Shown piece after piece: positions 12,530 through 48,712 of a stretch of DNA of 49,292 nucleotides (the first letter of the stretch is position 1; each line of letters starts with the position of its first letter). The DNA comes from a virus (taxonomy: Duplodnaviria > Heunggongvirae > Uroviricota > Caudoviricetes). Position numbers and translations under genes: made by a program. The notes below the pieces were generated by a model. It did not search any database, was not told where the DNA came from, and saw nothing but the letters and a program-made list of their open reading frames with translations. Where the stretch lies: IMG/VR virus record IMGVR_UViG_3300029288_004479; one strand, given 5' to 3'.

Positions 12530-12576
12530 TTTATATATGTGTGTGCTGTTTATAACTATTGTAGGTTTGGAGGAGG
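12530..12576 (+). promoter_or_regulatory. Strong promoter TTTATATA-N17-ACTATT plus SD GGAGGAGG (12569-12576)
   Basis: Consensus TATA box, window-wide ACTATT motif and an extended SD. Confidence 0.75.
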
Positions 12577-12590
12577 TTTCACAGAAACAC

Positions 12591-12905
12591 ATGCCAGTAG
12601 ATGCAACAGCAATCATCGGACTTCTGGTCGGATTTTTAGTCGTCGGCGTAATCGGTAAGTCTCGTAACGGGCTTAAAAAGAGAAAAGAAGCCTATTTGAG
12701 TCCCGGAATTTACGTGGGCGACCAAATGGTGCAGGCAGCTAACCTGTCCTCAGAAAACACACTGTACAGCTCACAACAGAGCATTATCGCGACGTTCCAG
12801 CTCGGTGTCACGTTATGTAAGATCATAGTTATCGTCTCTATCGCCAGTATCGTCTTCGTATTGCTCCAGAAAACCGGACTTATTCCGCGCTTCGGAGAGC
12901 AGTAA
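12591..12905 (+). CDS. Probable major capsid/coat protein (two hydrophobic helices); 104 aa unspliced, 87 aa after removing the predicted intron
   Basis: Strong promoter and SD, marked C-ending codon bias unlike the rest of the window, and a 3' hairpin. The helix-loop-helix hydrophobic layout resembles spindle-shaped archaeal virus coat proteins (inference). Confidence 0.68.
   Translation: MPVDATAIIGLLVGFLVVGVIGKSRNGLKKRKEAYLSPGIYVGDQMVQAANLSSENTLYSSQQSIIATFQLGVTLCKIIVIVSIASIVFVLLQKTGLIPRFGEQ
12658..12708 (+). other. Predicted 51-nt bulge-helix-bulge (tRNA-type) intron within the coat-protein mRNA
   Basis: Outer helix CGTAA(12647-51)/TTACG(12710-14); central 4 bp TCGG(12652-55)/CCGG(12703-06); 3-nt bulges TAA(12656-58) and AAT(12707-09); inner stems G-CTCG/TGAG-C and GGGCTT/AAGCCT. 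The splice is in frame and gives VIG-I-YVG. Confidence 0.85.
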
Positions 12906-12925
12906 GACTTACTCTGATGATAAGA

Positions 12926-12971
12926 GGGGGTGGTTCGTAAGAACCCCCCAATAAATTTTAAACCGTTTTTT
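12926..12971 (+). terminator. GC-rich 3' hairpin with GTAA tetraloop, followed by T tracts
   Basis: GGGG-T-GGTTC/GAACC-CCCC stem (12927-12949); TTTTTT at ~12966-12971. Confidence 0.65.
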
Positions 12972-13026
12972 AAACACTTACTAAAAATATATATCTGTAC
13001 TAAACATAATCTATTATGATTAATTA

Positions 13027-13866
13027 ATGTCAGTTATTACAGAATGCGCTTATTGCGGGGGAACTCTCTCAATAAAAAAATGTAAATATACACGCACCAC
13101 TCATCATTTTTGCAATAGAGACCATTATGGGAAATGGAGAAGTCAACACCAAATTGGAGAAAATAATCCCAATTATAAAGAAAAAATAAAACGCGTTTGT
13201 AAAAACTGTAATGTACAGTATGAATCATTTCCAAGTAACGTTCGTAATAAACAAGGATTTTGCTCATTAAAGTGCTATCATGAATGGAGGAGAAAACAAG
13301 CTAAACTGTGTGTTATAAAGTGTGTAGTTTGCGGGAAAGAAAAACAATCAAAACCAAGCAGATTAAAACGCGGAATAGATAAATGTTGCAGCAAACGATG
13401 TGAAAGTATATTAAAATCCCAAACACGACTTAGAGAAAATAACCCCAATTGGAAGAATGGCGCATCTCAAGAAACCTATTGCCCGAAATTCAACAGGCCG
13501 TTTAGGGAAGGCGTTAGGGAATTTTGGGGGCATATGTGTGGGTTGTGCGAAAAGAGACAAGAAGATAATATAATTATAAGAAGAGGCGAACCATTAGTAG
13601 CAAAACTGTCTGTCCACCACGTGAATTATAATAAAAGTGCCTGTTGTGATGGTCAGGAAACACATTGGATGTTTGCCCCAGTCTGTCACGAATGTCACGG
13701 AAAAACAAACGGGAAGAGGGACGATTGGAAAAAGATCTTATCGGATAAAATAATTAAAGAATATCAGGGGAAATCATATCTCACAGAAACAGAATATAAA
13801 CAATACTTTGCAAAGAAAAAACTGAACCCGGAATATACAATATTTGATCTGTTAACCACACAATAA
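13027..13866 (+). CDS. HNH endonuclease with N-terminal Zn-finger repeats (homing-endonuclease-like)
   Basis: Three CxxC...FCxxxC/H-like repeats, then CGLC...LSVHHVNYNK...FAPVCHECHGKTN. Confidence 0.85.
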   Translation: MSVITECAYCGGTLSIKKCKYTRTTHHFCNRDHYGKWRSQHQIGENNPNYKEKIKRVCKNCNVQYESFPSNVRNKQGFCSLKCYHEWRRKQAKLCVIKCVVCGKEKQSKPSRLKRGIDKCCSKRCESILKSQTRLRENNPNWKNGASQETYCPKFNRPFREGVREFWGHMCGLCEKRQEDNIIIRRGEPLVAKLSVHHVNYNKSACCDGQETHWMFAPVCHECHGKTNGKRDDWKKILSDKIIKEYQGKSYLTETEYKQYFAKKKLNPEYTIFDLLTTQ

Positions 13867-13954: not shown

Positions 13955-14001
13955 CTTAAATACTGCTACTACTATTAACACTATTGTAGGTTTGGAGGAG
14001 G
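13955..14001 (+). promoter_or_regulatory. Promoter CTTAAATA-N17-ACTATT plus a leader identical to the coat-gene leader
   Basis: ACTATTGTAGGTTTGGAGGAGGT is identical at 12555 and 13980. Confidence 0.7.
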
Positions 14002-14197
14002 TCAACAAAGACAATGCCAGTAGATGCCAGAGCACAGTATAATCAAGGACAGGTCACGTTGTATAAAGTAGATGTACTAAGTAGCGTCTACTTGTGCATA
14101 CAATCCAGCCTACACTAGATTCGTGCAAAGCATCCAAAAAAACGCAACTTGGTATATAGTATCAAGTTGTGGCATAGTCTTTTTTCGATACTCCTAC
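13985..14197 (+). ncRNA. Candidate structured ncRNA (~210 nt) mimicking the coat-gene 5' end; contains a 34-codon ORF (14014-14118)
   Basis: Stems: AAAGAC-ATGCCA/TGGCAT-GTCTTT, GATGC/GCATC, GCAC/GTGC, TTGTAT/ATACAA, AAGTAGATG/CGTCTACTT, GCAACTTGGTAT/GTATCAAGTTGT and AGGAG/CTCCT. Confidence 0.55.
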
Positions 14198-16573: not shown

Positions 16574-17046
16574 ATTATTATTTAGCAATTCCAACGGGTT
16601 TATTGGGAGTTATAATATATGCAGTAGTTGTGGCAGGTATAATTGCAGCATTAGGCATTTACAAATGGAAAAAGGAAAGAAAAAATGGAACAACTCTAAC
16701 AAAAACAGAATTAATCCACCAGTTCAATGAACTTATACGCCGTTCAACCACAATTTTTGTATCTTTTGTAGGATTAATGCTCATATTATTAATGGCAAAT
16801 GCGGGCGGGATTATTATTGAATCTGGTCATCCAGAGTGGGGGGTATGGATGGCAGTAGGATTAATAGTAGCAGCAATATTCACATTTATTTATTTACCTG
16901 TTATGGTATGTGTCGAATGGGGTATGTTCTTCGTGAATGTTATAACCCTCGCATGTGATAATTATGTTAAATCGAATGCACCATTGGAGCATTACACACG
17001 ATCAAAAATATGCCACGTAAAAACAGAAGAAGAGGATGATTGGTAA
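16570..17046 (+). CDS. Multi-TM membrane protein
   Basis: Three to four hydrophobic segments; GGAGG RBS. Confidence 0.75.
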   Translation: MNYYLAIPTGLLGVIIYAVVVAGIIAALGIYKWKKERKNGTTLTKTELIHQFNELIRRSTTIFVSFVGLMLILLMANAGGIIIESGHPEWGVWMAVGLIVAAIFTFIYLPVMVCVEWGMFFVNVITLACDNYVKSNAPLEHYTRSKICHVKTEEEDDW

Positions 17047-19612: not shown

Positions 19613-20128
19613 GTGAGGAAAATGTTTGAAGACCAGTTTACCGGAGAACTATCAGAAGAACAAGTATTGTTCCGTCAAATCCTGTTAATCAACGGATTAG
19701 CGACACGTATATTTGGGGATACCACTACAAACTGGCAGGTCAATGTCCGTAACTATGTAGAAACGATTAACAACTTTGAAGCTACGGCAATAAGACATAT
19801 AGATCGGGAGTACATCGAAAAGAAACGAATTATTGTTAAAAAAAGCCAGCAGGAATTACAAAGATATCGGGATGCAAACCCTAAAAGTACATCAACGAAT
19901 CAGGGAAAAGAATTTGAAATGCAATTAACCTTAAAATATGCCAGACGGGTATTTGCATTACTAATGATAACTTTGAACAATAAAGATGTATTCAACGAGA
20001 AATCATATCGTGCAATTGAAGATGTAAAAGACCACGAACTTACTGGGGGCGGGGGTATGCACGTAACGAGCGGACAGCAGCATCATGAATTACCGGGTGG
20101 CGTGAATCCACCGGGTTCACAACAATGA
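19613..20128 (+). CDS. Hypothetical helical protein upstream of the ATPase
   Basis: ORF coupled to the ATPase by an ATGA overlap. The exact start (GTG 19613 or ATG 19622) is uncertain. Confidence 0.75.
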   Translation: MRKMFEDQFTGELSEEQVLFRQILLINGLATRIFGDTTTNWQVNVRNYVETINNFEATAIRHIDREYIEKKRIIVKKSQQELQRYRDANPKSTSTNQGKEFEMQLTLKYARRVFALLMITLNNKDVFNEKSYRAIEDVKDHELTGGGGMHVTSGQQHHELPGGVNPPGSQQ

Positions 20129-21000
20129 TTCGAATTGACCCAGATATTGTAATCAGAAAGTACGTACAGAACCGTATAACTGCCAATAAAAACTGGTTAT
20201 CCGTACTCTGTGGCCCGACAGGATCAGGCAAATCATATTTTTCGTTGGCGGTTTGTGAAAAATTTTTCCCAAAATTTACTGTGGATAACATTGTATTTTC
20301 AGTTAAAGAATATCTAGATAAATTTAACGAATTAGATAAGCAACGAAGGTATGGAGACATTATTCTTTTTGATGAAGGTCACGAATATAACGCCAGACGT
20401 AGCATGGACGAAAAAAACGTTATGATGGGTGAAATATTAAGTATGATTCGGTTCACTCGTATCTCCAGTATATTTACATTACCCGATCTAAGACAAATCG
20501 ACGTAGCATTAGTAAGGTTAATGCACAACTATTGTTATACGTTTGATATAGATCGTAAAACCTGTCCACAATGGCAGAAAACACGAACAGGAGTTAAATT
20601 CTATGAAATTATGCATGAAGCAATCCCAAGAAAAGACTCTCGTGAATTACCAATGAGATACCCGGTAATGAACGTAGTCGTTCGAAACATGAGAACAGAA
20701 CAATTATATGAAAAAACCATTAAAATTAAAGAGTTGTGGTATAATGCACCAAGCGAACAATTATTAGAAGATTACGAGAAATTAAAACGCCGTCACTTTA
20801 ACCGTGCACTTGCAATGTCAAGAGCAAAATTACAGGCAGTAGATATGAAACAAAGAAACAAACTCAGTGCCACCGGGATAAATCCGGATGGGGAAGACGG
20901 CACACCGCAAACACCAATCCCACAAAACCCCGCACCGGCAAATACGCCCTCTACACACCAAGAGACGCAAAACGCAATTAATAGCATATTAAATTCATAA
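20125..21000 (+). CDS. P-loop ATPase, Zot-like viral morphogenesis/extrusion type
   Basis: Walker A GPTGSGKS, Walker B IILFDE, and TLPDLRQID..LVRL matching the Zot-like (Q..D..R) pattern. Confidence 0.8.
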   Translation: MIRIDPDIVIRKYVQNRITANKNWLSVLCGPTGSGKSYFSLAVCEKFFPKFTVDNIVFSVKEYLDKFNELDKQRRYGDIILFDEGHEYNARRSMDEKNVMMGEILSMIRFTRISSIFTLPDLRQIDVALVRLMHNYCYTFDIDRKTCPQWQKTRTGVKFYEIMHEAIPRKDSRELPMRYPVMNVVVRNMRTEQLYEKTIKIKELWYNAPSEQLLEDYEKLKRRHFNRALAMSRAKLQAVDMKQRNKLSATGINPDGEDGTPQTPIPQNPAPANTPSTHQETQNAINSILNS

Positions 21001-21095: not shown

Positions 21096-24000
21096 ATGCC
21101 AACGTTCGGTGGCTTTTCTTGGTCAACAATAACATCCCCAATACAAAATCTTGTATCAACAGTTACCGCACCTGCGGTATCTAAAGTTTCATCAGTAGTG
21201 TCATCTGCCGAATCTGCGGCAATTAATGCAGCTAATCAGGGAACTTCCGCCCTATCCACAACAATACCGAACGTTTTCAGTCAAGGTTCATCAGCAGCAT
21301 CGTCTGGAGTGCAAGCAGTACAGGGTATTTTAGTACAAGCGGGAGAATCAGCGGGTGCAGCAGCAGGAGCATCTGCAAGTAGTGCGTCTGAAGCTGTAAG
21401 AGAACTATTTAAATCAAAAACCACAATAACACCAACCCAAAAAGTAAAAACACCCGAGACCATCACTCCAAGCGAGTTTATCCAAAACCTTCAAAGAATT
21501 ATACCTTCTGCCGCAACAACCGCTGCAACAATAGCAGCAACACAACCCGCAGCAGCAGCAGCAAAAGCCATTCAAACGCTTCAAACACAAGGTGTTCAGG
21601 CAGGTCTTCAGGGACTTCAGGGTATTTCAGGAGGGTTACAAAGTCTCTCTGGATTAGTAAGTCAGCAAAAAATAACCCCGTCTCAAATTCAACCGCGTCA
21701 ATTTATTCCACCAACTCCTCAAATAATTATTCCGAAAGAACTAGAATCTGGAATATCGAAAATAAGTAGCACCGCAAAAGAACTAGGGCAAACCGGACTA
21801 TCAGCATTATCTTCAGGTGTTGCAGGAATATCCTCAGGTTTAAGTGGCGGTATAACCCCGGGTTTAATGCCGGGTATTAAAGGAATAACCCCCCAAGAAA
21901 AAAAGACATTTATAATTGATGGTGGCCCGGTTATGGCACCATTAAAACAACGCGCAAGAGATTTCAACCCGAAAGATTATTATTATGATCCTAAATCAAA
22001 CGTGTACATTCGTTCAGACAGGGGAGATATAGTATCAGTACAAGAAATGCGGGCAAAACTTAGTTTACCGCCTATAGCGTATTTCCCTCAAACCCCTTCT
22101 CAAGTAAGCGCAGGAGGCGTTTTTGTATCTGGAGAACAAACACTGGCAGCACAAAAAAAGTATCTTGAAAGTAAAGGTAAAGAAGTATCTGAATATAAAG
22201 CGCAGAGTCCACTAACAACCTTATTAGAAAGTGCCCTTCAGGGGAGGTTACCAACAGAAAAAGAATTAATTGCGCCGTCATCACCCGTCAGGATGATAAT
22301 CGGAGGATACGAACCGTCAACCGAAACTCCGAAAACCGTAGAACAGATGTTGCAGAGGCAAACGAGGGGCGGAACAGAAGGGTTACTCGACACTCTGTCT
22401 GTCATACCTGCTACAAGTATAGAGCGCAGTGTTGTTTCCGGTCTTGAAAAAGGTGCATTGCCAACTATAGAAAGAACTGCCGGGAAACTTGCATATGATG
22501 TTAAGGAAATCGTAGGTACAGGCGCAGCAAAAACGGGATTCCCACAGTACGCCATATCTGTAACAGAAAAAACAACGCCGGTTGCAGAAAAAGTTAGTAA
22601 AGCACTTAGTTATGATGTCAGTCAGATAACGGGAACCGTTGCTGGAAAAGTAGGATTCCCGAAATATGCCGTATCTGTGATGGAAAAAACAACTGCACCT
22701 GTGGAATCGGTTGCAAGAAAAGTGACATTTGACGTTGGTGAATTATTTAGTGGAAAAATTGCCCCAATAATCCCGCAAAAAGCAGAGAGATTAATTCCAA
22801 CTTTAGAGAAAATACAAGCTCCAACAGCAAAAATTATTGAAAGAGGTATTACAGCAGACAGGGAAAAATTAGCAAGAGTTGGTGTGACTGGTGCAGGAGC
22901 AATCGCAGCAGGTTCAACCGTTATGGGAGAAGGAACCGGGGGAGTCGGATTCATTCACCCGGAAAGCATTACAGAAACCGTACCGCTATCAAATAAATAT
23001 CAATTAGCTGAAAGAGGGCTTCCCCCAGCAAAAGATTTTGAGACAGGCACATTTATTGGAAAAGGAGGACTCCCATTATATTCTCCGGTTCCGGGAAGTG
23101 CAACCGAACGGTTTGCATTTGATGAGTATGGTAAAGTTTTGGGGTATGGCGGGAAATTTGAACCAGCGTTAAGTTCACAAGGCATCCCCCATAATACAAA
23201 GATGGGTAATGGGGAATATGTTTACGTAGGAGAGTATCAAAAACCAGATGGAGAGATAGTATCTCGTTATATTAATTATGATGTCGGATCATATGTGGAT
23301 TTTAATGTTGAAGGAGTTTATACAGCAAAGCGAGTGGGTATTGAAGGTGGTGGTTCACCGGGAGCAATTGCAGACATTCAACGACCAGTTCTCGGAGCAG
23401 AAACGATTACAACAACAACAATCACAAAGGAACAAAAACAACCAACAGGCAGTCCATTTAAGGCAGCAGTATCTGCATTAGGTGATATTGGGGCTTACGT
23501 GGCAAGTCCAAAATTTGCAACAGATTTATCAAAAGTTACGACCTTTGAACCGACAAAAGAGACAGCAAAAGCGAAAGCGTTCACCCCGTGGTCAGATTGG
23601 TATTTAAATAAAAACCCTGTAATTAGTGCCGTAGGAACAGGAATGGCAAAATTACAAATGGCTTCGGATAAAACAATGGGATTCGATATCGCACGTCAAG
23701 AAGATTATATGAAATCATCCCAAACAAAAAGTAATCAAGCTGCCATTGAAGCAGAGGATGCAAATCGTAATGTAATTAACTTACAGAACCAGTTAATTAC
23801 AGAAGGAAAACTTAAATACAATCCATCAGATCTTCCAGAAAATCAATTAGTCTTTACCGATAAAATGACCCAAGGAGATTATAAGAAATATAACGATTTA
23901 TCCTCTGTAGCTACAACAAAATATAATGCATATACCAAAGCAGCATCAAGCGCATTAGCCGATCAAAAAAAGTATGTGGAAATGGTTCAACCGGAACGTG

Positions 24001-27000
24001 AATCTTTTATTACCTCTGGATTATTGCCATATGAACGAGGTGCAATTGAAGCACAGGAAAAACTAAAAGAATCTGCATATGTAAAAGCGGAAGAACTTGG
24101 CGCATCCCCATTAATTCCAAAATCAGTACAACCTTACACAAAAGCAGGGTTAGAAGCAGGTGTGGGTTTTGTATCAGTACTGCCGTATTTAACAGAAGTT
24201 GGTATGGCAGCGACACAAATTGTCCCACTTGCCCCCTCAAACATTGAGTTAGCTATAAGAAAACCCGGATATTATGCAGCAGTAATCCCAGCAGCATTAG
24301 TTGCAACCGGAGCTGGTCTTACAGAACAAGTTAAAAAATTAGCTGCACCTGTTACTGGGGAAGAAGTAGATAGATATTGGGGGACTGTAGGTGAGGCCGG
24401 TGGTTTAGTTTTAGGAAGACGCCCTGCTGAAAAAGGGGTAACTACATTGAAACTAATATCACCGATCAAAGTTGAAGAATCGTTTTTACCAACAGGAAGG
24501 GGTATTGAAATAAAAAGTACTCCATTAGGTCGTCCCGGGGAAATCGGTGGGAGCATTGTAAGTAAAATTCCTGTTGTAAGATCAGTGTTTAAGGAAGGGA
24601 TTAAGGAATTAACCACAGCCGAACGAAAACCCGAAACAGTATCATATACGGGGTTATATTACGAATCCCCAATTGTAGGTATCCAAAAAGCGATTGGATT
24701 GAAACCAGAAGGATATGTGGCTCCCGGTGGATTAAAACCAATAGTTGGGTATGTGAGGCCAACAGAAGGGGCATCATGGTTCCTTAGGCCAAAAACAGAA
24801 ATACTTGCAGAACCCGGTAAAAAACCAATGGCTCTGGGTGAGTACACTCCAAGATTAACTCTTGAAAGAGAGGGTGCTTTGTACAAACCGAAAGAAGGAG
24901 CATTACCTACATTTGAAAAAACATCTCCAGTTACAGCAGGTATTATATCAGAATCTCCAGCATTAGCAAAAGCCGCGAAAGATATTTCCGCTGCAAGGAG
25001 CATAATATCTCCAAAAGGCAAATTAATAACCGGGACACCATATGAACTTACGCAATATGTGGAAAAAGAAGGATTTGTTCCGGATTTTGCAAGTATGTAT
25101 GTTGCAACGCCATTAATGCACGAGTTATTTAAAAAAGTTGGAGTAAAAGAAGCTGAAAATATCTATACAGCGCAAATGAAACAATTTAAAAACATATGGC
25201 AGATGTCATCAAAACCAGAGATCGTTAGAAACCCATATCAGGTATTAGAAAAAACCGCTGTCATTCCAAAACAGAAAGTAATTGGGGGAGTGGTATACCC
25301 ATCACGAATCCCCGAAGGAGCCGTAAGTGATTGGAGCGGCCTCCCAATCCCAAAAAATGCAAAGATCGGAGAAGCTTTCCATCACACAGCATATCCGGAT
25401 AAAGGCGTTTGGTTAACTCCGGAAGAACATACAAACTGGCATAATATGTTAGAAGGAAAATATCCGGTAGATCCGATATTCTTTAAAAAATATGCAATAA
25501 CTATACCAAAAACAGAACCCTTCGTAGAAAAACTTACAACAGCCGAACGCAAAAATACAATTGATGACTTTGTATCGATCTTAAAGAAGTACAAAGATCT
25601 TACAATTGGTGGTTCATTGACCGAATACGTTCAGGCAAAAAAAGCCAGATTACCAAAAGACTTTGATGGATATACGGAAAACCATCAGGCATTAGCAACA
25701 GAATTAGGGATGTATTATAAGAAACACTATGGAAATGAAAATGTAAAAATAAACTTAAAGAGCGAAGGATCGTCAATTGATGTAAATATTGATGGCAAAT
25801 GGGAAAAAATGGTCGATCTGCATCACAAAGGGTTTGGTGGGCAAGTAGGGACTATTGGAAGATATGGAGTGAAAACCGAAGCACCGATCACTGTAGAAGG
25901 ACTTAATTTTATGCCATTGAGGGAGCAGAGATTAAGAAAGCTTACTGCAACAATGGCGGTTCAAAAAACACCGGAAGGTAAGTTTTTCCCGAGTGCAATG
26001 GATACACGCCGTTTCAAAGATATCGGAGATGTATTGGGTAGTTCTACATCAATGGAAGCGACAGCGATCCAAGATATTTTCGGTAAACGTAAAGCAGCAG
26101 GTCTAGCAGAGACAAGAACAACACTTGAAAAAATGATTGGGGAAGAATACCCAATAACAGCAGAACAAAAACAAACCGCAAGAAAACGATTTGAAGCATT
26201 CGAACCTGTAGAACCAATGGGAACCTATTGGAGAACTCCATTAACAAGACGTTACGTAACCCCAGATATAATCCCAAGGGTTGTAGCGAAAGGAGCAGCG
26301 GTTGCAGGTACGGCAGCAGCGGCAGTTGGGGGTGCTGCAATAGCATCGGGTGTTATTTTACCCGCATTATCTGGTGCGGGATATACGCCATCTGAAAGAG
26401 AAAAGGAATTGGCTCGTATGGGTATATCCGGGGTGGCAATTGCCGGATTAACAAGGACTGAAGAGTTTGGTACAAGAAGAGGAATCCGCGAACTATCAAA
26501 GACCCTGAATAGGAGAGAAATTAACACCGCTGTTAAAAAAGGAGATCTCGATATAATCATTAACCCATTAGAATTTGAAGGCACTCCACTCACACCAATT
26601 GAATTAAGTAAAGTATCCCCGAAAACACAGAGATATATAAGTCTACTCGAACGAAATATTATAAAACAAGGTACTGAAATATCAGAGGATTTAAAACAAA
26701 ACCCAAGATTTACACAAAAACAAGTTACAGATATGAAACCAGAGGGGGTCTCACAAAAACAGTGGGATCAAACATTGGATGCATTAGTCGGTCTAAAAAA
26801 CAATGCTGTCTTATCTGGGAGTAAAGTGGGAGATGTATTTCTTAAGAAAGGTGTTGGAAGAGATGTAAGTAAATCAGATAACGATATTTTTATTGATGTC
26901 TCTAAAGTAGATACACTCCAAAGAACACTTAAAAAAATATATCCGGCACCCGAATCATCAAAATTAAAAGAGGGAAATATTTTTATTGCAGCAAGCGATC

Positions 27001-28913
27001 CATCAGAACCCGTAATAGTAAATGGCAAACTGGTCAATGCAGAAAGTTTACAAGTTAATAGATATCGCTACGATATTGCAATAGATGAAAAAGGAAATAA
27101 AGTACCAAAATTCACCGTACTTGAAGAACCCGTTATAGAGGTTCACACGTTCGAGAAATTCCCATCAGTTAAACAAAGTATAACAACCATCGAACTACCC
27201 AATAATAAAAAAATTAATGTAGCAAGTCCAGAATATATGTTAAGGAGTAAATTAGGCGGATCTTTTAAAACAGCATTAATAGAACCAAAAGGAAAAATCC
27301 TGATGGAAGTCAAAAGACTTAAAGATTATCCGGATGTAATATCAAGAACAAGGCAGATATCATCTGATTTATATAAACAGGCCGATGCTTTAGCAAAAAG
27401 TGGGTTAGATGCAAGTAAAATATTAGAAAAAGCAAAATTATATGAGCGACTTTCAAGAACATATACAAATTATTTGTTCTCAAAAGATGTCTTAAAAAGC
27501 AAGATCACCGCAGAAAAACGTGGTGCCAAAGGATATACAGATATTGAATTGCAGAAACTTTTAGATCAATATATCGAAGAAGGAATATTCCCGGAGACCA
27601 CAAAGATATCGACACCAGAATTTAAACAAACAATACGTGAGATCGATCCAGAAATCTTACAAGCGTTATCTTCACCAATACCGGAATATGTTAAGGGGAG
27701 TATAAGTGAAGTTCGTGAAATAAGATCAAAAGTAAATAAACTGGAAAATCCACTTAAAGAGATTAACACAAAAGAAATTACAAGGAAAGTAGAAAATGTC
27801 GCCCAACAATACCAATATTCTGGAAGACGATCAGCAGTTGGAGATATAATTGGATTAAAACCAAAAGCGTACACAAAACCAGAACCCACCCCGGAAACCC
27901 TAGCCGATCTATATCTAACAAAAGCATCAGAAAGAGTATCTCGTACTCCACTCAGAGAAAAAACAATTGATGGAACAAAAAGGATCAGTCCAAGGATGGA
28001 TGATTCTGGTATAGATGAATTAACAGAAGTATCGTCAGATTTTATTACTGTAACAAAAATGCCTACGCAGGATATAAGTATAAAACGGGTATCCTCACTT
28101 ATAAACAAAAAAACAGTTTCCGAGTTAACACCGAGTGGATATTCAACATTATTAACTACCTTAAAAGAAGAAGGTATAACATATCCGGTTACACCAAAAT
28201 ATGCAAAGATGACCGAATATCCTTCAGTTGTTGCAACATATCCAAGAATCAGAGCATATCCGGAAGTTTCTACATCTATACCAATACAAGCATATTCAAC
28301 TCAAGGAGAATACCCCACAACTATAAAATATCCAACACAATTTGAATATGCGAAATATGAACAATATCCCTCAGTTACTAGTTACCCGACTATGGCAACA
28401 CATCAAAAATATCCGGAGTACCTAAAGTATCCCGAGGTAACAACATATCCAGCATATTCAAAGTATCCCGAGGTAACAACGTATCCCGGATATCCTTCAT
28501 ATCCAACAGGAGCACCATATATTAAATATCCAAAATACCCTACATACACCCCGATTATACCATACACTCCAATAACCCCGATTATAACGACAGAACTTAT
28601 TACAACCAAACTCCCAAGAAAAACAAAGATCGAAGTAATCAAACGCAAACGCAAGAAGAAGATGGTTCCGCCAAGACACTGGGAGTATGGCCCCGGAGCG
28701 ACGCCAGCAGAGGTAAGTTCGTTTATCTTCGGAGCTCCGGAAAAACCACGACCTGTTAAAACGAAACCAACCGTTGGAAATATAAATTATACCCCGATCT
28801 CAATATCTGGAATAGAGGCACAGGAAACCAAACCAAAGAAACCCGCTACAAAACCCAAAAAAGCAGTGAAAGAAGAATATAATATAAATAAAGGCAGTGG
28901 GATGTTCACGTAA
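21096..28913 (+). CDS. Giant 2605-aa multidomain protein: low-complexity N-terminus, 39-aa repeats, HNH-like motif, two nucleotidyltransferase-like modules, Tyr/Pro-rich and basic C-terminus
   Basis: IGGS...R.PKDFD + RKL...RRFKDIGD; LSGS...DNDIFI + PEYMLRSKL...RLKDYPD; HH...LTPEEHTNWH. No obvious signal peptide. Confidence 0.85.
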   Translation: MPTFGGFSWSTITSPIQNLVSTVTAPAVSKVSSVVSSAESAAINAANQGTSALSTTIPNVFSQGSSAASSGVQAVQGILVQAGESAGAAAGASASSASEAVRELFKSKTTITPTQKVKTPETITPSEFIQNLQRIIPSAATTAATIAATQPAAAAAKAIQTLQTQGVQAGLQGLQGISGGLQSLSGLVSQQKITPSQIQPRQFIPPTPQIIIPKELESGISKISSTAKELGQTGLSALSSGVAGISSGLSGGITPGLMPGIKGITPQEKKTFIIDGGPVMAPLKQRARDFNPKDYYYDPKSNVYIRSDRGDIVSVQEMRAKLSLPPIAYFPQTPSQVSAGGVFVSGEQTLAAQKKYLESKGKEVSEYKAQSPLTTLLESALQGRLPTEKELIAPSSPVRMIIGGYEPSTETPKTVEQMLQRQTRGGTEGLLDTLSVIPATSIERSVVSGLEKGALPTIERTAGKLAYDVKEIVGTGAAKTGFPQYAISVTEKTTPVAEKVSKALSYDVSQITGTVAGKVGFPKYAVSVMEKTTAPVESVARKVTFDVGELFSGKIAPIIPQKAERLIPTLEKIQAPTAKIIERGITADREKLARVGVTGAGAIAAGSTVMGEGTGGVGFIHPESITETVPLSNKYQLAERGLPPAKDFETGTFIGKGGLPLYSPVPGSATERFAFDEYGKVLGYGGKFEPALSSQGIPHNTKMGNGEYVYVGEYQKPDGEIVSRYINYDVGSYVDFNVEGVYTAKRVGIEGGGSPGAIADIQRPVLGAETITTTTITKEQKQPTGSPFKAAVSALGDIGAYVASPKFATDLSKVTTFEPTKETAKAKAFTPWSDWYLNKNPVISAVGTGMAKLQMASDKTMGFDIARQEDYMKSSQTKSNQAAIEAEDANRNVINLQNQLITEGKLKYNPSDLPENQLVFTDKMTQGDYKKYNDLSSVATTKYNAYTKAASSALADQKKYVEMVQPERESFITSGLLPYERGAIEAQEKLKESAYVKAEELGASPLIPKSVQPYTKAGLEAGVGFVSVLPYLTEVGMAATQIVPLAPSNIELAIRKPGYYAAVIPAALVATGAGLTEQVKKLAAPVTGEEVDRYWGTVGEAGGLVLGRRPAEKGVTTLKLISPIKVEESFLPTGRGIEIKSTPLGRPGEIGGSIVSKIPVVRSVFKEGIKELTTAERKPETVSYTGLYYESPIVGIQKAIGLKPEGYVAPGGLKPIVGYVRPTEGASWFLRPKTEILAEPGKKPMALGEYTPRLTLEREGALYKPKEGALPTFEKTSPVTAGIISESPALAKAAKDISAARSIISPKGKLITGTPYELTQYVEKEGFVPDFASMYVATPLMHELFKKVGVKEAENIYTAQMKQFKNIWQMSSKPEIVRNPYQVLEKTAVIPKQKVIGGVVYPSRIPEGAVSDWSGLPIPKNAKIGEAFHHTAYPDKGVWLTPEEHTNWHNMLEGKYPVDPIFFKKYAITIPKTEPFVEKLTTAERKNTIDDFVSILKKYKDLTIGGSLTEYVQAKKARLPKDFDGYTENHQALATELGMYYKKHYGNENVKINLKSEGSSIDVNIDGKWEKMVDLHHKGFGGQVGTIGRYGVKTEAPITVEGLNFMPLREQRLRKLTATMAVQKTPEGKFFPSAMDTRRFKDIGDVLGSSTSMEATAIQDIFGKRKAAGLAETRTTLEKMIGEEYPITAEQKQTARKRFEAFEPVEPMGTYWRTPLTRRYVTPDIIPRVVAKGAAVAGTAAAAVGGAAIASGVILPALSGAGYTPSEREKELARMGISGVAIAGLTRTEEFGTRRGIRELSKTLNRREINTAVKKGDLDIIINPLEFEGTPLTPIELSKVSPKTQRYISLLERNIIKQGTEISEDLKQNPRFTQKQVTDMKPEGVSQKQWDQTLDALVGLKNNAVLSGSKVGDVFLKKGVGRDVSKSDNDIFIDVSKVDTLQRTLKKIYPAPESSKLKEGNIFIAASDPSEPVIVNGKLVNAESLQVNRYRYDIAIDEKGNKVPKFTVLEEPVIEVHTFEKFPSVKQSITTIELPNNKKINVASPEYMLRSKLGGSFKTALIEPKGKILMEVKRLKDYPDVISRTRQISSDLYKQADALAKSGLDASKILEKAKLYERLSRTYTNYLFSKDVLKSKITAEKRGAKGYTDIELQKLLDQYIEEGIFPETTKISTPEFKQTIREIDPEILQALSSPIPEYVKGSISEVREIRSKVNKLENPLKEINTKEITRKVENVAQQYQYSGRRSAVGDIIGLKPKAYTKPEPTPETLADLYLTKASERVSRTPLREKTIDGTKRISPRMDDSGIDELTEVSSDFITVTKMPTQDISIKRVSSLINKKTVSELTPSGYSTLLTTLKEEGITYPVTPKYAKMTEYPSVVATYPRIRAYPEVSTSIPIQAYSTQGEYPTTIKYPTQFEYAKYEQYPSVTSYPTMATHQKYPEYLKYPEVTTYPAYSKYPEVTTYPGYPSYPTGAPYIKYPKYPTYTPIIPYTPITPIITTELITTKLPRKTKIEVIKRKRKKKMVPPRHWEYGPGATPAEVSSFIFGAPEKPRPVKTKPTVGNINYTPISISGIEAQETKPKKPATKPKKAVKEEYNINKGSGMFT

Positions 28914-38104: not shown

Positions 38105-41100
38105 ATGACAAGTTCTACAGATAATAGAAGACGTATTGCACTATTATGTATTTTAGGGTTAATAGTCGTCGCTGTTATCAGTGCGGTAATTTACTATTTT
38201 GTGTATTTAAATCCTAGTCCTAGTGAAGATCAGTATATTACAAAACCAAGTCAGGAAACACCTAGAATAGAGACCGGTAAACTAATTAGTGAATCTGACA
38301 AAGTAACCCGAGCGGAAAAAACACTGGTAATTGATCAGGGATTTATCACAAACGATACGTATTCTAATAAAAAATACGACATACCTAAAAATTCACTTAA
38401 CGAGTCATTACAAGGACTAAATGAAACTGAAAAAGCAGATGCGGTAGCTCAATACATTAACAAGTATGTTGATCTTCGTGGCAAATCGTCAATTACCTTA
38501 AATAACGGCGACTTAATTAATATTACTGTTTACAGTCAAACATATGACCCGGAAACAAAAACAAACAAATTTAATTTAACTGTAACGAGAAATGGGAACG
38601 CCGTTGAAGTCCATAACCCGGTGAGAGTATATGATGCACCATTTACCATACAAGAACCAAAAAAAGTATTGGTCAATACAACCGTCTCATTAGATCAGTT
38701 GGCTCCGGATGTATATTTCCCTCACAACGGAACGAAACTATACAACCAATCAACAATGGATAATTTATCAATAGTGTCATCGAGATACGAGAATGTTACG
38801 GTTGAAGTCGAGTCACCGGCAAACGCATTGCTGGTAAATCTGGCGAACGCTTTTTCATACGCGCCATATGGAGATCCAACGTTCGACGGGCCAGACCCAA
38901 CCGTTATATTTTATGGTAGCGGAACGTGGACAGCCCCGGCAAACGTGCATAATGCAAGTGCAATACTTGTTGGAGGTGGCGGTGGTGCTGGTGGCGGATA
39001 TGGCACCTCCATCTCAATGTATACCCAAACAGGACTTTATGCCTGTACGCTTACAAACACAAATATAGGCCCATCGGGGCAAGGAGCCGGAGGATTTGCA
39101 TCTGAGTATAACCCTCAAACAAACATATCAGTGACTCCCGGAACAGGATATTCAATTGTTGTAGGTACAGCAGGATCTGGTACTGGGGGAGGTGTACTCA
39201 CATCACTTATGGGTAATAATTACCCGTATGATATTTGTACAGAAGATAACCAGACAATACAACTCAAAGGTAGCAATGGAGTATCAACAACCGCATTTGG
39301 ATACTCTGCTGCTGGTGGAAACGGAGGAAACGTAACCGGTGTTTGGAAGCAGGGGTGGACATCGTGGCAGATTATCCGTGATCATGCAGCAACCGGAAGT
39401 AATGGTAATATCGTCTCTGGAATGTCATCGACATCAGCATCGTCAGGTACAGCAGGATATGCAGGTGCTGGTGCTGCGGGAGGAAGTAATTATGGTGCTG
39501 GTGGCGGTGGAGGTGGCCCGGAGTTATACGGTCACCTTGTGACGGATAGTGGTGGGGCAGGATCAAAAGGATTCGTTTATTTAACATATACTACAATATT
39601 CTCTCCGGTTGCGAGTTTTACTGTAAATAAAACGTCCGGGGTTATGCCGCTTGCAGTTGCATTTACAGATACAACAACCAATACGCCAACAGGATGGATA
39701 TGGAATTTCACCAATGTTACAGGGAATAATACTCCGGTAACCTTTAGTAATTCTAAGAACCCAACACAAATCTTTGGATATGGAAATTATAAAATAACCT
39801 TGACTGCAAGCAACATTGCAGGGACAAGCACCTCGACACAACCAACATGGATTAATGTAACATTACCCATTCCACAAGCGGACTTTACAGCGAACCAGAC
39901 AACAGGACTATATCCGCTGGACGTTCAGTTTACCGACACCACGTCAAACGCACCAACAACGTGGGTCTGGTCATTTGGTGATGGGCAATCAAGTGCACTC
40001 CAGAACCCGATACATTCCTATGCATCCGGAGGTTCATATACAGTCACATTAACGGCATCAAACCTTGGTGGATCAAACCAGACCACGAAACTAAATTACA
40101 TTACCGTATATAATAAAACGGTTTCGGGATTTTCTGCAAACAAAACAAGCGGAGTATTCTCATTAGCCGTAAAATTCTCTCCATCAAAGTTCAATGATAA
40201 TGCAACATGGTGGAACTGGAGTTTTGGTGATGGGACGTACCTCAACGGATCTACCCAAAGTCCAACGCATGTTTATGCAACTGGTGGCACATTCACAGTA
40301 ACGCAAAACGCGGGTAATGCATATTGGACGAATACCACAACAATTCCAGATTATATTACCGTATATAACTCGACATTTACAGGGTTTACAGCAAATCAGA
40401 CAACAGGCGTATTCCCATTAGCAGTCCAGTTTACATTGACATCATCAAACGATAACGCATCCTATTGGAACTGGTCGTTTGGTGATGGGGTTTGGTTTAA
40501 TACGTCGGATTCTGGTGAGAAAAACCCGGTTCATACGTATGCGAACGGAGGATCATACACCGTATCAGAATGGGCGACGAACCAATATGCCTCGAACGTA
40601 ACAACAAAACCAAATTATATCACGGTATATAATCAGACCCTATCTGGATTTAATGGAGTCCCAACGACGGGATATACTCCACTCGTAGTCTCATTTAGTG
40701 TAACTAACCCAAAGGATAATGCAACAAGTTGGAGTTGGGGGTATGGGGACGGCGGATGGTTTAACTCAACCACACAAAACGCAACGCACGTTTACACAAC
40801 CGCAGGCACATATTCAGTCACGGAAATAGCAAATAATCCATACTATTCAAATACGACAGTATTAACAGATTATATTACGGCAATAGAACCTCCGGCACCA
40901 GTAGCTAATTTTAGTGGTTCACCATTAAGTGGACTTTTCCCATTGACAGTATCATTTGTTGATGAATCCAATACAATAAACCCACAGACATGGACATGGG
41001 CGTTTGGAGACGGCGGAACGAACCAGACCCAGAACCCGGCACATACATTCTATTCAGGTGGAACTTACACAGTATCGCAGACAGTAACCAACCTTGGTGG

Positions 41101-44100
41101 TTCAAACACATCGACAAAAGTTGATTACATAACAATATACAATCAAACCACATCTGGATTTACAGGTACGCCAAGATATGGTATGATCCCACTCACGGTT
41201 GATTTCAACACAACTGTTGTCAATGACAATGGCACTATCTGGAATTGGTCATTTAACGGGGGATTAAACTGGACGAACGGTAGCACGCAAAATATTAGTT
41301 ATATCTTTGCATCTGGTGGAAATTATACCATAATGCGGGTAGTCCAGAACGATCATGGGGGATATAACCTATCAATAATGCCAAAATATATCGAGGTAAG
41401 GAATACAACCGTTACAGGATTTACGGCGAACGTCACAGAAGGTATATTCCCCTTAACGGTTGTATTTAACGTAACCACTCCTGATGATAACGCCACCTAT
41501 TGGAACTGGTCATTTGGCGATGGGAACTGGGTTAATAGTACAACTCAGAACATAACGCATACATATTGGACAGGCGGATCGTATACAGTATCGGAAAAAG
41601 CAAGTAATGCATATACATCAAATACAACAACAATCACTGATTACATAACAGTTTATAATAAAACAACGTCAAGTTTCACAAGCAATGCAACAACCGGTAT
41701 AACACCGGTATCAATCGCATTCTCCGGGTATGGTCAAAACGCAACATCATACTATTGGGAGTTTGGAGATGGTAACACATCAACAGATCAGAACCCAACC
41801 CACACTTATGAAATAATCGGAACGTATACTGTCAGGTACTCGACAAGTAATGGACACTGGACGAACTGGACGAATATAACAAATTACATTTCGGCAACGC
41901 CCTATGCAGCACCGGTCGCTAAGTTTACTAGTAATATTACGTCGGGAGTATATCCATTATCAGTAGAGTTTACCGATCAATCAACAGGATTAGGGATCTA
42001 TAACTGGTATTGGTTATTTGGAGATGGGAACCTAGTATCAGAACAGAACCCCGTTCACACGTTCTATTCTGGTGGTAATTATACCGTAACAATGACGGCA
42101 ATAAATGCTGGTGGTTCAAACACCTCAACGAAAACAAATTATATTACCGTGTATAACCAAACATATTCGGATTTCACGGCGAACCAGACAACCGGATATG
42201 TGCCATTCCCTGTAACATTCACGGTAACAAAAACAAACGATAATGCAACGTGGTGGAACTGGTCGTTTGGAGACGGAAATTGGAGTAATGGAACAAACCA
42301 AACGGTAAGTCACGTATACGAAGTACCGGGAACGTATGATGTAACAGAAATTGCAAATAGTATCTATGCATCAAGCACAACGACAAAAACAGGGTATATA
42401 ATCACAAGTCAGGTTCCGATTCCGGAACCAAGTTTCATAGCAAATATAACCGTAGGGATCGTTCCGATGGCAGTCCAGTTTAATGATACAACAATCGGAT
42501 TAAAATTAACAGCATGGAATTGGTCATTTGGAAACGGGGAATTTTCAGAAGAACAAAACCCTGTTGTTACTTATTATGTTGTTGGTAATTATACAGTTAC
42601 ATTAAATGTAACTAATGCTGGCGGAACGGGGTCTTCAGCAAGAGTGGATTACATCAATGTATACCCAATACAAGTCCCGATTGCATCCTTTATATCAAAT
42701 GTTACAATCGGGTTTGAACCAATGGCAGTCCTGTTTAATGATACAAGCCAGAATATTCCAACCGCGTGGCAGTGGAATTTCACGAATGTTACCGGAAATA
42801 ACACGCCCGTTACGTTCAGTAGTTCTAGGAATGTAACGCAGATCTTCGGTACAGGAAATTGGTCGATTGTGTTAGGTGTAAATAACATTGCCGGAACAAA
42901 CTTCACACAAGAGACGTATTTTATCAACGTCTCACCACCTCCGGAAGCAAATTTCACAATGTCTGAAGTTATAAACTTAACTCCAAACATTTGGAACTTC
43001 AATGATACGAGCGAATGGATGGATATTACAGAATACAGGTGGGATTTTGGGGACGGGAACTGGAGTAACGGGTCAACCAATAGAAACGTGACGTATAAAT
43101 ACCCAACCTTTGGAAATTATACAATAACTCATTATATCGTAAATGCGAGTGGAACAAACCACGTCTCAAAAACACAATCAATTTACTTACAATCTAACTT
43201 CACGGTCGTCAACTTCACAACACCGGGAACCTATACGTGGACAGCACCGGAAGGCGCGATATTTATTGATTATTTGGTAATAGCCGGCGGGGGTTCTGGC
43301 GGAGGTTCTGGCGGTGGCGGCGGAGGTGCTGGCGGATTGTTATCCGGATATTATTACTCGATTATTCCCGGAGTTACTTATAATATTATGGTAGGTAGTG
43401 GAGGATTGGGTATAACGGGATCTGCAACAATGGGTGTAAACGGTTCAAACTCTTCAATTAATAATGGAACCGCAGAGATCTTGACGATTGGTGGTGGGGG
43501 CGGTGGAGCGTATAACGCCCTTAAATACGGATATGAGGGGGGTTCTGGTGGGGGAGGTTCACAAGGAAGTGGCGGACACGGCACGACCGGCCAAGGATAT
43601 GATGGTGGTGTGGGGTCGGTTCTTCAATACGTAGGATCAGGTGGTGGCGGCGGTGCTGGCGGACTTGGTGCAAATGGTAATGGCACCGTAGCAGGGAACG
43701 GAGGGATTGGTCTTCCAATAAACATCAACGGCAATTATACCTATTACGCAGGTGGCGGTGGCGGTGGTATCACGGGAGGTGCTGCGCAAAGTTATGGTGG
43801 ACTTGGTGGCGGTGGAAGAGGTGGGTATAGTGACACACCAGCAACAAACGCTACACAATACGGTGCTGGTGGCGGTGGTGGTGGATGGGCAACAGGAAGA
43901 TCGGGATATGGATATTCAGGAGCGGTAATATTCAGGTATATATCAGTACCCTATGCAAACTTTACGGCAAACGCAACAACCGGGTCAATACCATTTGCCG
44001 TTCAATTCACAGATACTTCAACAGGAGATCCATTATACTGGAACTGGTCGTTCGGTGATGGCAACTATTCAACCGATCAGAACCCAATGTATATATATAA

Positions 44101-46605: not shown

Positions 46606-47046
46606 ATGAGAGGATGGGAACTTATTTTACTTTTGATCATGGGATCACAAGTATCACAGATATTCGTAGCAAGCATTGGGTTATTCCCGGAAGATTATCT
46701 TGGACTTAATGGACAGTTTGTATCGTCAAATCCAGCAAACGCAACAATAAATTCAACAAAAGGATATGTGACTGGCGATTATAACGATCAGACCGGTGAA
46801 ATGATAGAAGATCAAAAGAATATGGGTACTATGGATGCGGTAACGTTGGGTGTAGCGACGTTCGTATCTGGAACCCTTATGATAATAACGGTAATATCGA
46901 CGTTTGTTACGGTTTTACCGACATTAATTGTATTCTTCCATTGCCCATTACCACTGGCACTGGTGTTGCAAGCGATAGTCTATTACGCCCTTGTCTGGAG
47001 TCTTGCACAGTGGAAGGCTGGCCGGTCTGGAGGTATGATCCAGTGA
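46606..47046 (+). CDS. Membrane protein, possible virion component
   Basis: N-terminal TM, polar loop and two C-terminal TMs. Confidence 0.8.
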   Translation: MRGWELILLLIMGSQVSQIFVASIGLFPEDYLGLNGQFVSSNPANATINSTKGYVTGDYNDQTGEMIEDQKNMGTMDAVTLGVATFVSGTLMIITVISTFVTVLPTLIVFFHCPLPLALVLQAIVYYALVWSLAQWKAGRSGGMIQ

Positions 47047-47747
47047 TGGAGAATAAAGACGTAAGAAAGTTAATGCCATTATTATTGGTATTAACAATCT
47101 TAATTATCCCAACACAGGCAGCGGTAATTACCAATCCTGTAACGGTGAATTCCAGTACGTTCTGTGTAAAATTCTCGGGAACTACAAACGACGGAATCGG
47201 ATGGTTTGAATATGGAATCGATCATACAAACGATCCCTTCTCGATAGGGGGGTATAAATCATTTAAAACCCCGAACGTCACAACATCAGCAAACTATAAC
47301 CATACAATTTGTGGTATCCCGTTAATTCCCAATCAAACGTATGTAGTTCAAGCCGTGGGTTCAGATGGATCAATAATTGAATATGGGGATAATGAAACAT
47401 TTACCACGCCGGTTCAACAGCCGCATGTGACAACAACATATGCAGTATACACAGATGTATTCCTTGAAGATCTCCAAAACGACCCGGTAAAGATCATTAC
47501 TACCGATATTTGGATAGTGTATACTATAACAATCGGCGCAACAGTGTTCTATGGTATAATAATTGGAATGAGTATCTTAAACATGGTTACAAAACAACGT
47601 TCAATCGCAATGGCGGTACTGGTAGTTATGCTTTGCAGCGGAACGATTTGGGCATTGTTCCCACCAGAGTTCGTAATGTTTGCAGAAATATTACTGGTAT
47701 TGGGATTTATGGGAATATTTTATTGGTGGACAATACGGAGGAGATAA
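47046..47747 (+). CDS. Exported beta-sandwich protein with C-terminal TMs (233 aa); start moved to ATG 47046
   Basis: Signal peptide; WFEYG...L.PNQTY.VQA resembles a fibronectin-III-like fold; three C-terminal TMs. Confidence 0.8.
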   Translation: MENKDVRKLMPLLLVLTILIIPTQAAVITNPVTVNSSTFCVKFSGTTNDGIGWFEYGIDHTNDPFSIGGYKSFKTPNVTTSANYNHTICGIPLIPNQTYVVQAVGSDGSIIEYGDNETFTTPVQQPHVTTTYAVYTDVFLEDLQNDPVKIITTDIWIVYTITIGATVFYGIIIGMSILNMVTKQRSIAMAVLVVMLCSGTIWALFPPEFVMFAEILLVLGFMGIFYWWTIRRR

Positions 47748-47750
47748 AAA

Positions 47751-48125
47751 ATGCCGATACGAGCAAATCCATTCACATTATTTGTGGCGTTAGTAGGAAT
47801 AGCATTACTTTTATTGTTATCCCTATCATTTTTTGGGAATGATACAATAGAATCACCAGAAAGTTTATCAAGATGGGAAAATACATCAAATAGTTCAATT
47901 CCCGGAGATATTAATTGTACCTTCATGAATATCACAAGCAATCTGAATTGTACGTATGTTTTTATAGAGGGAGAAAATCCAAATTTAGAAGCGTTTAAAG
48001 AGGAAGGAGTAAAAAACCAGACAATGGTGATGAGACTTTGGGAAGGAGCATTATATGTAATTGTAGGTCTAATGCTACTCTACATGTTCTATTTCTTCTT
48101 TAAAAAGAAGCGGAACTGGTGGTAA
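47751..48125 (+). CDS. Two-TM glycoprotein, 124 aa
   Basis: TMs at both ends, N-X-S/T-rich loop and a KKKR stop-transfer motif. Confidence 0.75.
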   Translation: MPIRANPFTLFVALVGIALLLLLSLSFFGNDTIESPESLSRWENTSNSSIPGDINCTFMNITSNLNCTYVFIEGENPNLEAFKEEGVKNQTMVMRLWEGALYVIVGLMLLYMFYFFFKKKRNWW

Positions 48126-48130
48126 TTGAA

Positions 48131-48712
48131 ATGATAATGAAACCGCTTAATATACTACTACTATTTATTATAATACTTGCAGTTCTAGTGATCCCCGTCC
48201 AAGCATCAACCTTCACAAACATAAAATCAGATGTAGGAGAATCATGGATTAAAGTGAGTTGGAATAGTTCAGTCACCGCCCAAATCTATGTAGATGGTGC
48301 ATTAATAACGGATGAGTTAAGCGGTACAACAAGAGCAACAAATAATACAATTGGTTATTATTATCTCTCAAAATTAAGTTCGAATTCACAACATACAATC
48401 CAGTTAGTAAATGCTAGCAACACATCAGATTACAAGATAATAAGTACAAAAACACTTCCGCCAGCGTCAATAGTCCAGATTTTATTTATTATATCGATAC
48501 TTTTAAGTATCTTTTTATTATTTTTAGGTGACGATCCAATAAAAGTCATTCTCACCGGTGCATTGAATATTATTTTGTGTATGTTTGGGAGAACCATCTC
48601 ATATAATTACTATGGGATGGATTTATTGTTTTTAGGTATGTCATTCTTTTCAGGGATAATGATAGTATATGCAATTTATGAACTAGCACACGAAAGTCTG
48701 AATTGGTTCTAA
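48131..48712 (+). CDS. Exported FnIII-like domain plus C-terminal TMs
   Basis: Signal peptide; IKVSW...IYVDG...L..N..H.I pattern. ATG 48131 follows GGTGGT. Confidence 0.78.
   Translation: MIMKPLNILLLFIIILAVLVIPVQASTFTNIKSDVGESWIKVSWNSSVTAQIYVDGALITDELSGTTRATNNTIGYYYLSKLSSNSQHTIQLVNASNTSDYKIISTKTLPPASIVQILFIISILLSIFLLFLGDDPIKVILTGALNIILCMFGRTISYNYYGMDLLFLGMSFFSGIMIVYAIYELAHESLNWF

Follow-up and report, generated by a model that had tools for sequence, protein, structure and literature searches.

The 49,292-nt stretch of viral DNA analysed here (IMGVR_UViG_3300029288_004479, hereafter the window) matches a JGI scaffold, Ga0378408_0000072 (216,809 bp; L039). The coat-like gene at 12591-12905, the features of which are listed in Table 1, is an open reading frame (ORF) of 104 aa whose first hydrophobic stretch is broken by KSRNGLKKRKEAYLSPG, a basic insert of 17 aa. 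The same Shine-Dalgarno leader precedes the tandem copies on the longer scaffold. The downstream hairpin and T runs, as read from the sequence, mark a possible transcript end; a consensus terminator scan gave no call at this hairpin. The tandem array on the scaffold (L039:9280-10580) corresponds to 12549-12972 of the window, where a single collapsed copy is seen, and it includes a gap of 10 Ns. At least two complete copies of the gene and one partial copy are present in the array, with an identical insert in all of them, the last copy having a different upstream region of 142 nt. No insert-free canonical copy was found in either the window or the scaffold. Further downstream, at 13978-14030 of the window, the leader, Shine-Dalgarno sequence and first five codons of the coat-like gene (CACTATTGTAGGTTTGGAGGAGG...ATGCCAGTAGATGC) are followed by unrelated sequence; this looks like what is left of a further copy of the gene, or like an expression signal put to use again.

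Table 1. Features of the coat-like gene and of its predicted bulge-helix-bulge (BHB) intron, in window coordinates.
Feature	Position	Strand	Remarks
Shine-Dalgarno-like GGAGGAGG	12570..12577	+	13 nt 5' of AUG; read from sequence
Exon 1	12591..12657	+	codons 1-22 (MPVDATAIIGLLVGFLVVGVIG) and base 1 of codon 23
Outer helix h	GCGUAA 12646..12651 with UUACGU 12710..12715	+	exonic on both strands; 5 Watson-Crick pairs and one G-U
Central 4-bp helix H	UCGG 12652..12655 (exonic) with CCGG 12703..12706 (intronic)	+	
5' bulge UAA	12656..12658	+	predicted cut 12657/12658; rule derived from PMC4090602
Predicted BHB intron	12658..12708	+	51 nt, in frame, without stop; unspliced would encode KSRNGLKKRKEAYLSPG
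Intron body	12659..12702	+	inner helix h' and apical hairpin
Inner helix h'	12659-12664 with 12697-12702	+	5/6 pairs, one U-U mismatch
Apical hairpin	12669-12674 with 12688-12693	+	A-rich 13-nt loop
3' bulge AAU	12707..12709	+	predicted cut 12708/12709; rule derived from PMC4090602
Exon 2	12709..12905	+	codon 23 (Ile) bases 2-3 to TAA stop 12903-12905
G+C-rich hairpin GGGGGUGGUUC...GAACCCCCC, then T runs	12926..12971	+	read from sequence

Several neighbouring genes bear on the nature of the element. A P-loop ATPase encoded at 20125-21000 belongs to the 'DnaA-like' family of SSV1 and His1 (PHROG 5484, 7.9e-9) and matches His1 ORF16 by BLASTP (4e-6), a similarity that possibly links the element to the spindle-shaped viruses despite its size of at least 217 kb. 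The window also contains an archaeal-type Pth2 gene, and Pth2 and the His1/SSV1-type ATPase together point to an archaeal host, which would hence be expected to possess the tRNA splicing endonuclease EndA and the ligase RtcB. Two giant ORFs, at 21096-28913 (2605 aa) and 38105-45994 (2629 aa; 16 PKD repeats and Gly_rich_2), probably encode adhesin- or fibre-like virion proteins, and a similar protein of 1898 aa is found upstream of the coat-like gene in the related locus L002. Directly downstream of the coat-like gene, 13027-13866 encodes a 279-aa Cys-rich protein with CxxC repeats, for which neither a Pfam or PHROG family nor an HNH family was detected. A role for this gene as an HNH enzyme mobilising the insert was rejected, given the lack of an HNH family match and the presence of its homologues beside insert-free alleles of the coat-like gene (L013, L014, L017, L018 and L026). 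Near the start of the window, 135-1448 encodes a fusion of a TnpB/Cas12f-like TNB domain with an ART-PolyVal ADP-ribosyltransferase domain, adjoining a tRNA-Ala(UGC) gene at 1657-1730.

When 12640-12722 is folded, a strict hBHBh' motif is the minimum-free-energy structure (-27.8 kcal/mol, z = -3.08), and none of 200 shuffled sequences folds as stably. The UAA and AAU bulges lie on opposite strands, each 3' of its own strand of the central helix, as in tRNA introns; beyond the outer helix, a 1x1 mismatch is followed by five further pairs. The elements by which an archaeal BHB intron is recognised, namely two 3-nt bulges, a 4-bp helix and the flanking helices h and h', are all present. The 4-bp helix of a pre-tRNA takes in the first two bases of the anticodon, and splicing occurs at 37/38 (PMC4090602); because the geometry is the same, the cut is placed after the second nucleotide of each bulge. 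The scan of the window against Rfam found no match to the intron, the sole match at gathering threshold being the tRNA at 1657-1730, and detected neither a C/D box nor any other known RNA family within 12658-12708. A self-splicing group I or group II intron is out, given the absence of an Rfam match and an insert of 51 nt, as against a ribozyme core of at least 200 nt.

Excision according to this rule leaves a protein of 87 aa, in which GGT A/TT TAC (the slash marking the junction) encodes G-I-Y and the hydrophobic stretch reads VIG-I-YVG. By protein search, 96 relatives were found, almost all of them 84-94 aa long, and 32 were included in an alignment across the site. Every insert-free protein in the alignment reads VVGVIG[I/V/T]YVGD, with T in one; G22 and Y24 show no variation, I or V stands at position 23 (T in the same single case), and the basic 17-aa insert is confined to the window's allele. 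The 51-nt insert is absent from about 95 homologues, which come from other metagenomes, and the DNA of one insert-free allele, L014, is GTAATCGGTATTTACGT, which is the predicted spliced junction itself. The fold and the product had both been put forward in the initial annotation, and both held: each element of the BHB described at 12647-12714 is found in its place, as the minimum-energy fold, and the in-frame removal of 51 nt yields an 87-aa, G-I-Y product matching insert-free homologues, which read VIG[I/V]YVG as had been expected. The claim that the exons, and not the insert, are strongly biased towards C at third codon positions fared less well. The exons do have a C3 of 0.36 (GC3 0.58), as against 0.12-0.19 in five other genes of the window, and the insert has C at 3 of 17 third positions, so that the direction is as claimed; the strength of the difference between exons and insert is weak (p ~0.09 by a binomial estimate).

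The exon codons also contribute to the structure. All six pairs of the outer helix can form in both of the alleles with an intron at this site (that of the window and L001), and in none of 36 distinct insert-free alleles, which on sequence comparison is a signal for the predicted exonic helix. The 51-nt intron is known from a single sample. A search of IMG/VR found no relative of the 87-aa protein, a further protein search, with exon 2 as the query, revealed no additional truncated alleles, and a scan of representative genomes found one contig with a relative, in a metagenome-assembled genome (MAG) labelled Patescibacteria. This contig (JBAZKI010000026.1, 7747 bp; L003 and L020) carries two copies of the coat-like gene. 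Its label is probably a binning error that says nothing on the host.

The structure of the insert-free protein was predicted by AlphaFold as a two-helix hairpin, with helices at residues 3-35 and 43-78 (pLDDT 75). The intron site of the window lies midway along helix 1, which is broken by a low-confidence loop when the unspliced 104-aa form is modelled; the proposal that excision restores a continuous helix is borne out by the comparison with insert-free homologues. At about 70-90 aa, with two hydrophobic helices joined by a short loop, the protein has the features by which capsid proteins of spindle-shaped viruses are recognised. The family is very conserved and often present as tandem copies or paralogues, and two conserved genes follow the hairpin gene in about 20 loci. 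In three of the paralogues (L005:561-1373, L007:364-1194 and L013:1926-2750), an in-frame, Gly-rich domain of about 190 aa lies between the helices; no BHB was found at the borders of these domains, which are protein domains and not introns.

Searches for a known counterpart of the hairpin protein returned little. Pfam gave no match even at E <=10, hhalign against His1 VP21 and SSV1 VP3 gave probabilities under 1%, and PHROGs, PDB sequences and tblastn on phage and archaeal virus records gave no match. Foldseek against PDB and BFVD gave no significant fold match, a helical hairpin being too simple a fold to be informative. A capsid was hinted at only by an Atlas feature score, which was 0.85 to a VP1_VP3 cluster (SSV1 VP1/VP3 = PF06281). 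The conservation, tandem copies and codon usage of the gene, together with the nearby ATPase and giant proteins, suggest that it encodes an abundant structural protein. Its profile fits a spindle-virus-like coat protein, although with no significant match to VP1/VP3 or VP21. That it is the major capsid protein is given slightly better than even odds. The 'probable major capsid gene' of the initial annotation therefore remains plausible on the grounds of the hairpin, tandem copies, codon bias and ATPase, while finding no support in similarity to a known capsid.

Three further alleles of the gene (L001, L002 and L037) carry BHB inserts of unrelated sequence. Alleles with introns thus amount to about 4 of roughly 100, with unrelated intron sequences at three sites, all of which lie inside predicted helices. 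The 99-nt insert of L001 is at the same site as that of the window and is likewise in frame and open; the cut rule (UCGGAG/A...CCGCAA/U) gives GGA GTT TAC, or G-V-Y, which is the family consensus. The insert of L002, of 32 nt, is out of frame and lies at codon V18, four codons upstream of the window's site, with UCGU/GCGG as its central helix. That of L037, of 91 nt, is also out of frame and follows K60 in helix 2; pairing is perfect in its central helix (CUGC/GCAG) and inner helix (UCGAU/AUCGA), whereas the outer helix and the 3' side are relaxed. Constraining the fold to the BHB costs 0-0.2 kcal/mol relative to the local minimum in the window, L001 and L002, and 3 kcal/mol in L037; in a wider context, the BHB of L002 is not the minimum-energy fold (z = +0.46). 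Removal of the insert gives a full-length conserved protein in each of the four. Left unspliced, L002 would encounter a stop after 39 codons and L037 would lose helix 2. Both are frameshifted, and therefore removal of the insert is obligatory in both. Inserts that are in frame and open are over-sampled, as alleles of this kind are more easily found by ORF-based protein searches. Relaxed BHB motifs need an EndA of broad specificity, of the alpha2beta2 or epsilon2 type (PMC3488258), and those of L002 and L037 would, by analogy, require such an enzyme, a weak hint as to the type of host of these relatives. The motif of the window is strict, and so on the same analogy should be acceptable to all types of EndA.

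The shape of a BHB by itself proves little, because a loose pattern is common by chance: it has approximately 490 matches per strand in the window, and stricter score scans of the window returned 1,176 and 1,897 candidates. The weight of the evidence, which is drawn from sequence comparison, lies in the agreement of the BHB register with that indicated by homology. Fixed registers were scored out of a maximum of 15 pairs (4 central, 6 outer and 5 inner). The register of 12658-12708 scores 14/15, with neighbouring registers scoring 3-8. Among 2,000,000 random registers in the window, a fraction of 2.7e-5 scored at least 14 and 2.2e-4 at least 13. From a reading of the sequence, at most six registers at this site give a homologue-like protein; allowing for these six, the chance of an exact-register match is about 1.6e-4. 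In the registers required by homology, L001 and L002 score 14 and L037 scores 13, such that all four inserts reach 13-14/15 with neighbouring registers at 2-10, and the joint chance for all four is of the order of 1e-15 (6, 3, 3 and 4 admissible registers).

Six protein insertions in the inter-helix loop, including the Gly-rich domains of L005, L007 and L013, served as negative controls. For five of the six, the best BHB score was 11 in 1,900 registers each. The loop insertion of L036 gave a match of 14/15, which was dismissed as chance, the BHB not being the minimum-energy fold and its excision deleting conserved residues. None of the six has a homology-compatible BHB. Elsewhere in the window, in-frame BHB-like registers scoring 15/15 were seen at 16764-16805 and 28007-28039, where about 20 such would be expected by chance. 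A run of short ORFs without family matches, overlapping in different frames, occupies 46606-48712. The run may be a single gene divided by out-of-frame mini-introns; several BHB-like registers there would merge adjoining frames, with scores at chance level.

Direct observation extends to the motif, to the exact register in which it occurs and to the agreement between the predicted spliced product and insert-free relatives. With a probability of roughly 85%, 12658-12708 is a genuine archaeal BHB (tRNA-type) intron in a hairpin gene, one probably encoding the main coat or virion-membrane protein, of an uncultured archaeal virus-like element of at least 217 kb. The insert could instead be translated, giving a functional 104-aa protein (or one isoform) with a basic 17-aa loop, the BHB being unused or partly used. 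Its length is a multiple of three and it is free of stops, as is the 99-nt insert of L001, and the 16-18 hydrophobic residues that precede it might still span a membrane. Yet this would leave the exact-register BHB to a chance of about 1.6e-4, even with six registers allowed, and would place the insert in a predicted helix, which the unspliced model shows broken, at a point where the 32 aligned homologues all have G22 and Y24, with I or V at position 23 (T in one). Moreover, the out-of-frame BHB inserts of L002 and L037 cannot be translated through, and the openness of the other two is of the kind over-sampled by ORF-based searches. Translation of the insert is hence considered unlikely. An intein was rejected, 17 aa being too small.

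It is more improbable still that EndA cuts the BHB with no productive ligation to follow, the motif then acting as an RNA off-switch, a decoy or a source of circular RNA. EndA does cleave a BHB in a 5' UTR in Haloferax (PMC7714728), a precedent with nothing specific to this insert, but the restoration of the conserved protein to the nucleotide in four independent alleles is expected only if exons are joined, and the intron contains no C/D box or known RNA family. Decaying pseudogene copies or an assembly artefact might be suspected from the N gap in the scaffold and the collapsed tandem repeats at the locus; the insert is, however, identical in at least two complete copies and one partial copy, the reading frame, Shine-Dalgarno sequence and strong codon bias are intact, and neither the window nor L039 has an insert-free canonical copy, leaving very little credence for this explanation. 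Scarcely any attaches to ribosomal bypass of the insert, that is, translational hopping as in phage T4 gene 60. The gap would be of similar size (51 nt), with a hairpin and with Gly codons on either side (GGU before, GGA at the end), but there is no stop after the take-off codon, take-off GGU and landing GGA differ, L001 has no matching landing codon, and the exact BHB registers of four unrelated inserts would be left unexplained.

For a BHB intron, cutting and joining by EndA and RtcB, and circularisation of the intron, are established in the case of tRNA introns (PMC4090602), and the same enzymes are presumed to cleave and ligate here. In the pre-mRNA, exonic GCGUAA and UUACGU would form the outer helix, and exonic UCGG would pair with intronic CCGG. 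Host EndA would cut after nucleotide 2 of each 3-nt bulge, leaving 2',3'-cyclic phosphate and 5'-OH ends. RtcB would then join the exons as GGU A/UU UAC, with GTAATCGGTA/TTTACGTGGG as the predicted RNA junction, restoring helix 1 at its midpoint; the excised intron of 51 nt would be released, probably as a circle, also via RtcB. A viral structural gene would thus appear to depend on host tRNA splicing. Given the scarcity of intron alleles (about 4 in roughly 100), their spread over three sites and the lack of sequence relationship among the introns, these are most likely sporadically acquired mini-introns tolerated by virtue of host splicing, a regulatory switch being less likely; such a sporadic pattern at multiple sites fits invasion better than a conserved regulatory device. 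The purposes put forward in the initial annotation, namely a timing switch, a host-range check or an EndA sink, found no support in the analysis.

Group I introns of phages, such as those of T4 td and nrdB, are self-splicing ribozymes of at least 200 nt, often with homing endonuclease genes, and are independent of the host. As in those cases, an essential viral gene is interrupted, sporadically among relatives; the difference is that the insert here is of 51 nt, has no Rfam match and would be reliant on protein enzymes. The geometry and cut rule are instead identical to those of archaeal tRNA and rRNA BHB introns (Marck and Grosjean 2003; PMC4090602, PMC3488258), although here in an mRNA with no mature-domain context. 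A closer parallel is the short BHB intron of the cbf5 pre-mRNA in Desulfurococcales and Sulfolobales, of 33-39 nt and in some cases in frame (PMC2738675), for which cleavage by the tRNA splicing endonuclease has been predicted or demonstrated (Watanabe 2002; Yokobori 2009, PMC2738675) and which was stated to be the only coding-region example as of 2020 (PMC7714728). That intron too is short, within a coding region, and gained and lost among related lineages, but it occupies one conserved site in a cellular housekeeping gene, whereas unrelated introns occupy three sites in the viral structural-type gene. In Haloferax volcanii, the HVO_1309 mRNA similarly has a BHB intron, an EndA substrate both in vivo and in vitro (PMC7714728), but this lies in a cellular 5' UTR rather than a viral coding region. 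For the rudivirus SIRV1, putative and unproven 12-bp 'introns' in protein genes are mentioned in PMC2738675, citing Peng et al. 2004. As described there, these resemble the present inserts in being short insertions in protein genes of an archaeal virus, discussed as possible introns, and differ in their 12 bp from inserts of 32-99 nt with full BHB geometry. A literature search found no description of a BHB intron in a viral protein-coding gene, the mRNA BHB introns in the literature examined being those of crenarchaeal cbf5 and the Haloferax 5' UTR (PMC2738675; PMC7714728).

The three sites and unrelated introns among close alleles would offer a natural system in which to study the gain and loss of BHB introns. 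Out-of-frame mini-introns, such as those of L002 and L037, lead gene callers to break up real genes in archaeal viral metagenomes or to translate them wrongly. A broader and tentative speculation, for which the odds are held to be well short of even, is that BHB mini-introns are mobile and polymorphic as a population and invade the best-conserved genes of archaeal viruses again and again, in this case at three sites of one 87-codon gene. The virus may profit if an insertion disrupts invariant DNA targets, such as CRISPR protospacers or restriction or homing sites, while host splicing keeps the protein unchanged. If this were true, genes of this kind would be overlooked or wrongly called on a systematic basis in catalogues of archaeal viral genes. 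Should a viral structural gene indeed require host EndA and RtcB, tRNA-type mRNA splicing would extend to viruses, and the production of virions would hang on the tRNA-processing machinery of the host.
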